Source: Candidatus Hodarchaeota archaeon (GTDB taxonomy: Archaea > Asgardarchaeota > Heimdallarchaeia > Hodarchaeales > Hodarchaeaceae). From it: a DNA stretch of 28,822 nt. The notes beneath the pieces are model-generated. The model did no database searches. It worked only from the letters and a program-made list of their open reading frames with translations, and was not told where the DNA came from. Shown piece by piece: positions 7,641 to 15,486 of this stretch. Every line of letters begins with the position of its first letter. Position 1 is the stretch's first letter. The position numbers were made by a program, and so were the translations under genes. The stretch covers positions 1 to 28,822 of the forward strand of contig JAEOTC010000045.1 in NCBI GenBank assembly GCA_016840035.1, read 5' to 3'.

Positions 7641-10442
7641 ATGAATAGTGAATGGAAAGAAATCTTTGTTTCATTTGGTAATATGAAAACTAATTTCTTA
7701 AAGTCAAGTAGCTTATCCAGTGACAAGGATTCAGAATTTATTGACCAGTTTCTTCTTCAATTCACTGTTCTATGGGTCTTACAGAAAAAATTATTCTTCA
7801 ATAATGATGAAGATTATTTTCTTAATATGTTTCACCTAATAGAACGAAATTCTTCAGACTTTCCTTTCAGTACATTTGATAGCTTTCTTAATTCCTTCTT
7901 GACTTGTTTAGAAGAACTAGATGATTACCAAACCAGTCATCATCCTTATTTTGGAATATTGTACGGATGTAAATCTGCATTGTTTGTCAATCTGGAGGAA
8001 GTTAAACATAAACTAGAATTTCCAGATGATTTTTACCTTCCTCAAAAAAATGGATTGAAATCAAACACAAAAAACAATTCACCAATTGGTATCCTAGAAT
8101 TACTCGATCAACTCGAAATTCGAAATATTGGCACTTTTTTGGGATCATTGTACGAGTGGTTAATGTCATCAGATAAGAAAAGAAGAGGTGGAGTTTATTA
8201 TTCCCCTGTTGAGCTAACATCGTATATTACCCGTTTTTCCTTAAGAACATACTTAATGGATCAAATGGAAATAGACAAGGACTCCAGAACTAGTGATTGG
8301 ATGAAACCAATAGAATTATTGGACAAATCAGAATGTGTAAAATTTTATGATAAATTGAAATGCATCACGATTCTAGATCCTGCTGTTGGCACTGGACAGT
8401 TCTTGGAAAGTGCTGCAGATGACTTACTATCATTATATCAGATGCTAATTCAGAAATTTAAAGACTTTCAGGAAACAATCCTATTAAATGTTGGTCAATC
8501 AAAAGAGGAACCAAACTATATTGATCTGACAAAAGTTTCTGAGAAATTAACGGTTCAATTTCTTATTTTAAATCATTTAATTTTTCCCAATGCCTTGTTC
8601 GGAATAGACATCGACCCTTTCGTAATTCCATTCACAAGAGCGCGATTATTTATTTATACTGCAAAATACTTTGAGGAAAATGCTGTCAAATCATCAATCA
8701 TCAGACCTTTCAGAAGTAATTTAGTAATTGGAGATTCCTTACTACTCAATTGGAGAACGGCTTTCAGTCCAATATCAAGCTCTCATGATTTATTCTCTCT
8801 TATCCTTACTAACCCTCCTTACATTGGGGAGAGTGATAACAAAGAGATATTCCGAAAATATTCTCTTATTTTTCCTGAATATTACGAGGGAAAGATTGAC
8901 ATCTGGAATCTATTTTTCCATTTAGCGATAAATCAAGTAGCTCCCAGAGGAATAGTATCATTTCTTACAACAAATTATTGGTTAACTGCCTCTGGAGCTT
9001 CTAAACTACGTAATAGGATTTTACATGAAACTTATATCCTAGAATTCATTGATTTTGGTAAAAATCGAATTTTTCAAGGGGCTCGGGGAATCCATTCAAG
9101 TATTTTGTCTGTAATGAATTTGAAGGCTCAAAATCCCAATATTGATTGTAATTACTACACAGCCAAGATTCCTAATGGAGTTAATCCCATGGATGAAAGG
9201 TTAGAACAATTAATATTTCAAATTGACCAAAAAGATCTTACATTGAATAATTGGGATCAATATTTTCACTTTATCCCTCCTAACGTGTCCGTTATTTTGA
9301 AAGCTACAGCAAAAAATAGCTCACCCATCAGAGAATCATCTTACAGTGTAAAAGAAGGATTGATAACCGGATTAAATAAAATTACACCTCGTCAAATCAC
9401 GAAATACGGCTACCCTTCAAGCTGGAGGAACAATGGTGTATTTATCCTCAATATAAATAATCCTGTTGATCAAAATCGAATTGAGTCATTTAATAATCAT
9501 GAAATACAGTTTTTACGTCCGTTATATAAGAGTTCAACAATCTTTTCTTATTCGACACGGATTAAAACTGATCTACGCTTATTATATTTAGTAAGAAACG
9601 AAATCGACTTTTCATTCTTGCCTAATATTCAGGAACATCTGGAACAATACAGTATTGCTTTGGATAATTCTCTTGACAATCCACCCTTTCTGAATCGTCC
9701 TAGAAAAAAAAGTATGTTTCACGCACCAAAACTTGTTACCCCCCAAAGAGCGAGGACAACGCAGTTTGCTTATAATAATACTGAGTGGTATGCAGCTCAA
9801 GATGTCTACTTTATTTGCGAAGAGGAAAATTCAACCTCAAAACTCAAAATCTTACTCTTACTTCTTCAATCTAAAGCAGCATTTTTTTGGTTTTCTTGGA
9901 TGGGAAAAAAGAAAGGTTCTCAACTTGAATTTTTCGGTGAATCAATATCTAATTTCCCTATTCCACAAATTTTATCGAATCCTGTAGTGATGGAACGATT
10001 AACAAATTATTTAATATTTTTGAATACTCTCGAGCCTCTTCCTAAGGAGCTTCAAAATATCCGAGATTTTATTGAGCATAGAATAGCAAACGTTATGGTT
10101 TACAAATGTTTCTTTCATGAATTGATATTCACCACCCCCAGTCAAGCTCAACTCTTCGAAGAAGTGTGTGAATTCTTGTTGAAAGTCTTAGAAGTCATTG
10201 ATATTGAAAATTATTTAACTGCTAGGTATGAGGAGTATGTAATTGACGAGATTAGAGGAAATACTGAATCTGAATTCTTTTCTCATACAGAAACTATTTT
10301 GTCTAAGGTAAAAAGATCGTTTGAAAGAATCCGTAAGGAAGAGAAAGTCCTCGAATTATACAATCAAGCAATAAATAATATCTTAATCCAACAGATTGAG
10401 GAATTCTATTTTTCAAAAAACAAAAAAAACCTATTTTCTTAA
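7641..10442 (+). CDS. Gamma-class N6-adenine DNA methyltransferase (Eco57I/type IIG-like M domain + TaqI-like C-terminal specificity domain); no nuclease domain recognised
   Basis: 'LGSLYE', 'GVYYSP', motif I 'ILDPAVGTGQFL' (~8376), 'LFGIDID', 'GDSL', motif IV 'NPPY' (8811), C-terminal 'PKLVTPQRA...FAY'. Confidence 0.9.
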   Translation: MNSEWKEIFVSFGNMKTNFLKSSSLSSDKDSEFIDQFLLQFTVLWVLQKKLFFNNDEDYFLNMFHLIERNSSDFPFSTFDSFLNSFLTCLEELDDYQTSHHPYFGILYGCKSALFVNLEEVKHKLEFPDDFYLPQKNGLKSNTKNNSPIGILELLDQLEIRNIGTFLGSLYEWLMSSDKKRRGGVYYSPVELTSYITRFSLRTYLMDQMEIDKDSRTSDWMKPIELLDKSECVKFYDKLKCITILDPAVGTGQFLESAADDLLSLYQMLIQKFKDFQETILLNVGQSKEEPNYIDLTKVSEKLTVQFLILNHLIFPNALFGIDIDPFVIPFTRARLFIYTAKYFEENAVKSSIIRPFRSNLVIGDSLLLNWRTAFSPISSSHDLFSLILTNPPYIGESDNKEIFRKYSLIFPEYYEGKIDIWNLFFHLAINQVAPRGIVSFLTTNYWLTASGASKLRNRILHETYILEFIDFGKNRIFQGARGIHSSILSVMNLKAQNPNIDCNYYTAKIPNGVNPMDERLEQLIFQIDQKDLTLNNWDQYFHFIPPNVSVILKATAKNSSPIRESSYSVKEGLITGLNKITPRQITKYGYPSSWRNNGVFILNINNPVDQNRIESFNNHEIQFLRPLYKSSTIFSYSTRIKTDLRLLYLVRNEIDFSFLPNIQEHLEQYSIALDNSLDNPPFLNRPRKKSMFHAPKLVTPQRARTTQFAYNNTEWYAAQDVYFICEEENSTSKLKILLLLLQSKAAFFWFSWMGKKKGSQLEFFGESISNFPIPQILSNPVVMERLTNYLIFLNTLEPLPKELQNIRDFIEHRIANVMVYKCFFHELIFTTPSQAQLFEEVCEFLLKVLEVIDIENYLTARYEEYVIDEIRGNTESEFFSHTETILSKVKRSFERIRKEEKVLELYNQAINNILIQQIEEFYFSKNKKNLFS

Positions 10443-15486: not shown

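Follow-up and report, generated by a model that had tools for sequence, protein, structure and literature searches.

What can a pair of transglycosylase-like genes be doing between two DNA methyltransferase genes in an archaeal genome when no restriction nuclease accompanies them? The question is raised by a five-gene block (7641-15486) in 28,822 nt of DNA from Candidatus Hodarchaeota archaeon (assembly GCA_016840035.1, contig JAEOTC010000045.1; this whole stretch is referred to as the window), in which an MmeI-like methyltransferase (+), a TGT-like gene designated A (-), a DUF6884 gene (+), a second TGT-like gene designated B (+), and a beta-class methyltransferase (+) lie next to one another. 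The answer preferred here, which we hold to be evenly balanced between right and wrong, is that the block is a domesticated, chromosomally fixed, DpdB-less DNA base-exchange module (A, B, and DUF6884), co-inherited with two nuclease-free adenine methyltransferases. A first-pass annotation of the window had proposed these five open reading frames (ORFs), all of which occur where and in the orientation it had them, and had read the TGT-like proteins as DpdA-like, DUF6884 as a partner of such enzymes, and the locus as nuclease-free and unlike the dpdA-K islands. Each of these proposals holds up: A is sister to a viral DpdA clade in a quick tree and matches the phage DpdA family, and both A and B have the TGT fold; DUF6884 stands beside DpdA-like genes in viral clusters and is joined to one in a fusion protein; and no nuclease, helicase, DpdB, or integrase could be recognized in the block or the window.

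A and B are 24% identical to one another in BLASTP (E 8e-11), and a comparison of the two family alignments gave an hhalign probability of 98.2% (E 4.7e-14) with the motifs in register; judged by these alignments the two are paralogues, of which B is strongly divergent. AlphaFold models of both proteins, built from alignments of their orthologues (predicted local distance difference test, pLDDT, 88.9 each), were compared with 48,161 solved chains (VIA Z). For each model, five representatives of the TGT superfamily were the sole matches above generic TIM barrels (Z 12.6 or less), namely ArcTGT (1iq8; Z 24.0 for A and 19.4 for B), the DNA preQ0 insertase DpdA (7ui4; 20.3 and 16.9), a bacterial TGT (3unt; 18.9 and 16.7), QTRT2 (17.7 and 14.8), and Cap10 (9ntn_B; 17.6 and 14.2). 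Further, the B model matched TGT in Foldseek (E 4e-8) and viral DpdA-like proteins in BFVD (best E 6e-8). Together, fold and profile evidence confirm that A and B belong to the TGT superfamily despite sub-threshold Pfam and NCBIfam scores, and both are bare catalytic cores, without PUA or other tRNA-binding domains.

The two paralogues differ in their relation to viral enzymes. A matched phrog_887, a phage DpdA family, over nearly its full length (residues 14-286, E 1.9e-17), and B matched it weakly and in the motif region only (E 7.7e-4). Searched by tblastn, A had matches in 83 of 50,697 phage records, where the annotation reads queuine tRNA-ribosyltransferase or DpdA (Microbacterium phage Megan, 2e-16), and a hidden Markov model of the A family matched 24 viral TGT ORFs at 1e-8 to 1e-22. 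By sequence, A groups with phage DpdA and not with tRNA TGTs. In a quick, unfinished, midpoint-rooted tree with long branches, from which no direction of transfer can be read, A formed a clade sister to the viral DSGA[FY] proteins and B a second clade, on a long branch and closer to other Heimdall TGT-like proteins. Tandem DpdA-like genes occur on several viral contigs (L041:5033-7369, where they flank DUF6884, L070:3529-5306, and L022:670-2543). An origin of A and B from such tandem viral pairs was considered and rejected, as in the quick tree the viral pairs are within-virus duplications and B falls outside the viral clade.

The catalytic residues of the superfamily are kept in both proteins. 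A has DSGAF (D63), LD (D100), and DWxGWR (D199), the aspartates being invariant in 22 A-family sequences, while B has DSGAF (D65), LDYPD (D105), and DGCDSxRWR (D211; P0002 numbering), with aspartates (D62, D102, and D208 in the numbering of the orthologues) that are invariant in 27 B-family sequences. In DpdA, aspartates D95, D130, and D256 are essential, serving as general acid/base, in base binding, and as nucleophile, and are invariant in TGTs (PMC10164549). On motif register and spacing, the three invariant aspartates of A and B are predicted to correspond to this triad, with only the DSG motif aligning directly to solved TGTs. The CxCxxC...H zinc site conserved in TGTs and bacterial DpdA is lacking in all 28 viral DpdA-like ORFs, as it is in A and B; of these ORFs, 25 carry DSGA[FY], one DSGGF, and two (HRTV-29-type) no such motif.

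The gene between A and B encodes a protein that matched Pfam DUF6884 (PF21818) at 6.4e-16 (59.2 bits, cut-off 30) and the YaaA family (H2O2_YaaD, PF03883) at 1.4e-8 (35 bits, cut-off 29.6); because the latter match covers only 65 residues and scores lower, the protein is taken as a relative of DpdC and not its orthologue. PADLOC profiles PDC-M57A (5e-13) and DpdC (1.8e-6) and phrog_5935 (8.6e-16) were also matched. Both motifs described for the family, CxxxK and LSAxxG (PMC11701544), are intact (C20..K24 within SCGKKK, and ISAKYG) and are conserved in the orthologues and in the protein of HRTV-29. Additional DUF6884 forms were seen in proteins P0103 and P0104 (481-486 aa), where an N-terminal DUF6884 domain precedes an unassigned C-terminal region of ~300 aa, and in some Hodarchaeales genomes, where 486-aa frames (G069:C21 and G070:C1) represent second copies.

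Using an alignment of the DUF6884 orthologues, 80 viral loci were retrieved from IMG/VR, in 25 of which a DpdA-like ORF was located on the same strand at a distance of no more than 6 kb, in most cases next to or overlapping DUF6884; one of the 25 was a TGT-DUF6884-TGT sandwich and others had two tandem TGT genes. To set this count in proportion, A has matches in no more than the above 83 of 50,697 phage records. The 132 neighbouring ORFs from 23 non-redundant DUF6884+DpdA loci included 17 QueC, 13 GTP cyclohydrolase I (FolE), 13 radical S-adenosylmethionine (SAM) proteins (QueE-like), 10 PTPS (QueD-like), five ParB_N, and four YhhQ-like proteins. Phage 7-deazaguanine DNA-modification clusters of this composition have been described (PMC6884629, PMC10516641), and, by their gene content, the viral DUF6884+DpdA loci are clusters of this kind. 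In the haloarchaeal virus HRTV-29 (genus Dpdavirus), the YaaA-like gp32 overlaps the start of dpdA (gp33), two genes that the original description lists separately without drawing a connection (PMC8651126), and in Microbacterium phage Megan two tandem TGT genes (gp02/gp03) are followed by QueC, QueD, QueE, and FolE. A 569-aa DUF6884::TGT fusion (P0105) adjoins a PTPS (QueD-like) gene on a metagenome contig. In cellular genomes outside the Hodarchaeales, a TGT-like neighbour was present at two of 63 DUF6884 loci, with none at the Borrarchaeum and Bacillus YfjM loci, so the family is wider than the partnership with DpdA; the viral neighbourhoods suggest that a subset of it works with DpdA-type enzymes. 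A limited literature search found no paper tying DUF6884 or YaaA-like proteins to the DpdA of phages, nor any that deals with DpdA in Asgard archaea.

Neither of the flanking methyltransferases brings a recognizable nuclease to the locus. The 933-aa protein matched Pfam Eco57I (8.6e-25), MmeI_Mtase (3.4e-11), and TaqI_C (8.2e-8), and its architecture is a probable helical spacer, a methyltransferase core with an NPPY motif, and a TaqI_C target-recognition domain. Alignments to the PADLOC Type IIG profiles begin at about residue 165, which corresponds to position 290-380 or higher in the profiles. No Pfam family matched residues 1-240 at E<=10 and no PD-(D/E)xK nuclease domain was found in this N-terminal region, while a language-model feature search relates residues 1-235 to the MmeI_hel spacer rather than to MmeI_N (score 0.95, a lead only), and a cryptic nuclease here appears unlikely. 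In common with the MmeI/Eco57I-type Type IIG/IIL enzymes, the protein has the methyltransferase core, the NPPY motif, a TaqI_C domain for specificity, and, probably, the helical spacer of MmeI; unlike them, it has no N-terminal nuclease domain that could be found, and its N-terminus is ~130-200 residues shorter than the aligned profiles. The 788-aa protein matched N6_N4_Mtase (PF01555) at 8.4e-39 (134 bits, residues 404-640) and PADLOC MTase_III at 1.3e-51, with DPPF at about residue 410 preceding FAGSGTT at about residue 615, the motif order (IV then I) of the beta class. A weak match to N6_N4_Mtase within its N-terminal half (residues 63-162, E 3.6e-4) fits a degenerate second methyltransferase-like domain. 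In relatives, a beta-class methyltransferase that is 43-55% identical lies directly downstream of B.

The distribution of the module was surveyed in 400 Asgard genomes, of which 24 belong to the order Hodarchaeales. Close orthologues of B were found in 20 of the 21 genomes from the genus to which the window belongs and in each of the two genomes from the sister family, and the other Asgard genomes yielded no more than distant TGT proteins (31-35% identity). Across the 24 genomes of the order, A is present in 19, DUF6884 and the beta-class methyltransferase in 22 each, and the MmeI-like methyltransferase in 19, on the same contig as the TGT genes. On every contig with more than one module gene these are 0-17 kb apart, and the order DUF6884, B, beta-class methyltransferase, YjbQ, hypothetical protein, TFIIB (-) ... 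HflX is maintained, two complete chromosomes included. Some lineages have insertions between the genes, either a SIR2 gene with a helix-turn-helix (HTH) gene or DUF362 with a 533-aa protein and an MFS transporter. Compared with three relatives, B (56-59% identity) is conserved to a degree comparable with HflX (52-58%), followed by DUF6884 (53-56%), A (48-49%), the beta-class methyltransferase (39-42%), and the MmeI-like enzyme (36%).

No patchy distribution and no flanking integrase or tRNA gene was observed (both genes are absent from the block and from the rest of the window), and the guanine plus cytosine (GC) content of the block (0.33-0.35) is near that of its flanks. Searches of the block and the window with Pfam, NCBIfam, and PADLOC turned up no nuclease, helicase, ParB/DpdB-like or other ATPase, or que gene. 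Judged from its distribution and synteny, the block is a vertically inherited core-genome feature and not a variable defence island. The first-pass annotation had suggested a survey of Asgard genomes for a conserved five-gene block and had proposed an epigenetic or anti-viral role. The block does recur (19-22 of the 24 genomes), but within a single lineage with vertical inheritance, so the linkage of TGT and methyltransferase genes is not independent evidence of one joint system of methylation and base exchange. As to the role, an ordinary variable defence island is disfavoured, and near-universal, syntenic, housekeeping-like conservation favours a constitutive function.

Several loci in these genomes depart from the common arrangement. 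In RDOB01000002 (L002:6170-8239), the MmeI-like methyltransferase and A are separated by an inserted SIR2-family gene together with a small HTH gene and one for a 250-aa protein. In CP070760 (genome G064), the frame of B is open for 577 aa (L119:6489-8219), an extension or a fusion, and the beta-class methyltransferase was not found at E 1e-30. Two genomes of the same class hold other TGT loci. In one (G016, L016:1669-10103), the neighbours of a full-length, zinc-less 387-aa TGT (Pfam TGT 3.7e-22) encode a UvrD helicase, a PD-(D/E)xK nuclease, a WD40-Roc-TIR protein, and an N6_N4 methyltransferase, a gene content that suggests a defence island equipped with a DpdA-like writer. In the other (G086, L015:7552-9280), DUF5591 (ArcS-core-like) is directly upstream of a 374-aa TGT with CxCxxC, a pair reminiscent, by analogy, of the viral ArcS2+DpdA pairs.

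The module has counterparts in several known systems, none of which it copies. With viral DpdA (phrog_887 type; Megan and 9g-like phages; PMC6884629, PMC10516641), A shares DSGA[FY], the aspartate triad, its small size, and the missing zinc site, and some viral loci have two tandem TGT genes and many an adjoining DUF6884. Unlike the viral clusters, the Hodarchaeales module is chromosomal, syntenic, and nearly universal in the order, lacks FolE, QueD, QueE, and QueC genes, includes a protein, B, from outside the viral clade, and is flanked by two DNA methyltransferases. DpdA/DpdB/DpdC of Salmonella enterica serovar Montevideo (7ui4; PMC10164549) has in common with it a TGT-fold transglycosylase with the same catalytic aspartates and a partner from the YaaA superfamily; DpdC is a PF03883 protein, and the Hodarchaeales DUF6884 is a distant relative that is also above the PF03883 cut-off. 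In contrast to bacterial Dpd, the module has a pair of transglycosylase paralogues where Dpd has a single enzyme, carries no dpdD-K restriction genes, and resides in the core genome, not on a genomic island. HRTV-29 (PMC8651126), like the module, has a DUF6884-like gene directly upstream of a DpdA-type gene and no preQ0 synthesis genes, such that the virus needs a host precursor, but it is viral and has a single transglycosylase and no linked methyltransferases. Its DpdA was rejected as an orthologue, for it resembles A only marginally (E 8e-4) and B not at all, and the likeness is one of gene order only. ArcTGT (1iq8), the best structural match of both cores, has the same aspartate triad, but A and B lack its zinc site and its C-terminal C1/C2/PUA tRNA-binding domains, and a genuine arcTGT and ArcS are present elsewhere in the genome.

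In the base-exchange reading, A would be a virus-type DpdA and B a lineage-specific divergent paralogue, and both would work by the double displacement of TGTs, in which a covalent intermediate arises between the sugar and an aspartate nucleophile, with the aspartate of DSGAF as general acid/base, swapping guanine in double-stranded DNA for a 7-deazaguanine-type base. DUF6884, predicted to be co-transcribed just upstream of B, would be the DpdC-like partner, either completing the base once inserted, as in the conversion of a nitrile to an amide, or handling the flipped nucleotide. The base precursor would be imported through a YhhQ-type transporter and not made de novo, and the flanking N6-adenine DNA methyltransferases, nuclease-free, would be inherited alongside.

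A number of results weigh against this reading. A and B score 16.2 and 16.3 bits against PF01702 (cut-off 26.3, with the below-threshold match around DSGAF) and 19.9 and 16 bits against TIGR00449 (cut-off 47.6), and neither matches the PADLOC DpdA models. The B-family profile finds only the DSG-motif region of TGT among PDB sequences (E ~1.4), so B cannot be placed by sequence alone. The CxCxxC zinc motif occurs in none of the 27 B-family and none of the 22 A-family sequences. Bacterial DpdA requires the DpdB ATPase (PMC10164549), which the Hodarchaeales block does not have, and core-genome conservation without a restriction partner is unlike the known Dpd systems. The linkage to methyltransferases is observed in one vertically related lineage only, and methyltransferases are not among the 25 commonest neighbour families of the viral DUF6884+DpdA modules, which bears on a functional coupling of base exchange with methylation. 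DNA as the substrate, as against RNA or protein, is inferred, and so are the identity of the base, the part played by DUF6884, and any functional link to methylation, whereas the analysis shows the fold, the family relations, the catalytic residues, the linkage and distribution of the genes, and the lack of a nuclease. Finally, canonical QueC is absent from 23 of the 24 genomes of the order, including those that are 96-99% complete, and QueE was not found in the source genome, so the inserted base may not be preQ0.

The first-pass annotation had the precursor supplied as preQ0 from archaeosine synthesis, a proposal that finds no support in that form. The QueC candidates of the source genome (87% complete) proved to be LarE, ThiI-like, and NadE proteins, and its two PTPS-family proteins fall below the QueD cut-off. 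The same genome holds a canonical arcTGT with a PUA domain (509 bits; C2:65351-66661), ArcS (on C182), and a YhhQ/Vut_1 transporter (118 bits; C13:64511-65047), a family described as transporting queuosine precursors, and some of the viral DUF6884+DpdA clusters likewise encode a YhhQ-like transporter. This gene complement points to salvage: the precursor is probably imported by the YhhQ-type transporter rather than made de novo, and archaeosine in the Hodarchaeales may itself depend on salvaged preQ0.

Other functions can be proposed for the same genes. A and B might modify RNA (tRNA or rRNA) as a lineage-specific housekeeping system, perhaps as a heterodimer like QTRT1/QTRT2, with the nearby methyltransferases an accident of synteny; this we consider unlikely. 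Housekeeping-like conservation, a syntenic position next to TFIIB and HflX that does not vary across 20 of the 21 genomes of the genus, the lack of a restriction partner in the block, and the rank of the archaeal tRNA enzyme ArcTGT as best structural match, with QTRT2 among the remaining matches, are all in keeping with an RNA substrate. Against it, arcTGT is encoded separately in the genome, at full length and with a PUA domain, as is ArcS, and A and B consist of the catalytic core only, with neither a tRNA-binding domain nor a zinc site; A is, in addition, nearest to phage DpdA by sequence and not to tRNA TGTs, and the DUF6884 relatives YaaA, DpdC, and YfjM are DNA-binding proteins. It is very improbable that the substrate is a protein, as for Cap10 of the cyclic-oligonucleotide-based anti-phage signalling system (CBASS), which attaches a 7-deazaguanine derivative to CD-NTase: Cap10 is among the top five structural matches of both models, but ArcTGT and DpdA outscore it, the sequence affinity of A is to phage DpdA, and the window has no QueC-like Cap9, CD-NTase, or other CBASS gene.

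A DNA substrate is also compatible with two functions other than constitutive base exchange. In one, the TGT-fold proteins and DUF6884 would form a DNA glycosylase or repair-surveillance module that removes or exchanges a damaged or foreign base, such as a viral 7-deazaguanine. YfjM, a DUF6884 member, was recovered among interactors of abasic-site and RNA-base lesions and has been modelled as nucleotide-flipping (PMC11701544), glycosylases directed against deazaguanine-modified phage DNA are known as defences, although with other folds (bioRxiv 10.1101/2025.10.29.685425), and the preQ0 synthesis genes are missing while the module genes are conserved in the core genome. Set against this are the full transglycosylase aspartate triad kept in both paralogues, the placement of viral DUF6884+DpdA pairs inside preQ0 synthesis clusters, implying writing and not removal, and the arcTGT, ArcS, and YhhQ genes, which imply a cellular deazaguanine precursor, and such a module seems quite improbable. 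In the other, the module would be the modification half of a restriction-modification-like antiviral system, with the effector encoded elsewhere or within the unassigned domains of the two methyltransferases. The absence of a nuclease, helicase, or ATPase from block and window, and of patchiness, island features, or a GC anomaly, together with housekeeping-like sequence conservation, makes this unlikely as well, despite bacterial Dpd and bacteriophage exclusion (BREX)-related systems that pair deazaguanine marks with methyltransferases for self/non-self discrimination, the match of DUF6884 to a PADLOC candidate-defence protein (PDC-M57A), the SIR2 gene inside the cluster of one relative, and the distant TGT paralogue beside UvrD, PD-(D/E)xK nuclease, methyltransferase, and TIR genes in another Heimdall genome.

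The base-exchange reading can be carried further, to a proposal that we regard as possible though doubtful: all Hodarchaeales would constitutively replace some chromosomal guanines with a salvaged 7-deazaguanine-type base by means of a domesticated viral DpdA, a second transglycosylase, and DUF6884, which together with the two adenine methyltransferases would form a fixed, nuclease-free 'epigenetic' layer, with DUF6884 as the general partner of zinc-less DpdA. The Hodarchaeales are among the closest known archaeal relatives of eukaryotes. Known cases of 7-deazaguanine in DNA come from phages, archaeal viruses, and bacterial Dpd islands, in which the bases are a means of attack or defence, and a core-genome version across an Asgard order would, if true, be the first cellular archaeal case; with no nuclease, DpdB, or synthesis pathway of its own, it would suggest a hitherto undescribed DNA mark that is used constitutively and perhaps for regulation. 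DUF6884, a family of unassigned function that the viral survey ties to DpdA and preQ0 clusters, would gain its first function, as a general partner of zinc-less DpdA in viruses and cells. This function is testable, and the link offers a possible explanation of how DpdB-less DpdAs work.

Table 1. Features of the five-gene block, in window coordinates
Feature	Position	Strand	Basis
MmeI/Eco57I-like gamma-class N6-adenine DNA methyltransferase, 933 aa	7641..10442	+	Pfam, NPPY
TGT-like A, zinc-less virus-type DpdA-like transglycosylase core, 312 aa	10476..11414	-	phrog_887, fold
Divergent AT-rich intergenic region, TGT-A / DUF6884, 91 bp	11415..11505	.	TATA-like runs
DUF6884 / YaaA-DpdC-like protein, 165 aa	11506..12003	+	Pfam DUF6884
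TGT-like B, divergent zinc-less TGT-fold paralogue of A, 350 aa from TTG	12007..13059	+	fold, hhalign
Beta-class N6_N4 DNA methyltransferase, 788 aa	13120..15486	+	Pfam N6_N4_Mtase

The intergenic region between A and DUF6884 contains the TATA-like runs aaatatttatta and tttaaatatttaatttt and probably holds the promoters of both genes. Database orthologues of B begin at the ATG at 12016. The remaining genes of the window are metabolic or housekeeping in nature, comprising inositol-phosphate synthase, UbiA, BpsA-SpeD, YjbQ, TFIIB, HflX, subtilase, PFK, PNP, and MetK. A single ORF (3003-4391, +) combines the C-terminal domain of the branched-chain polyamine synthase BpsA with an AdoMet decarboxylase domain. 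A PnrA/Bmp-like nucleoside-binding ATP-binding cassette (ABC) substrate-binding protein is followed by a PNP/UDP phosphorylase (25189-27149, +), a purine nucleoside salvage pair located ~10 kb from the module. The SAM synthetase (27357-28529, +) is of the bacterial/eukaryotic MetK type (S-AdoMet_synt N/M/C, E 1e-43 to 2e-67), in an archaeal genome.

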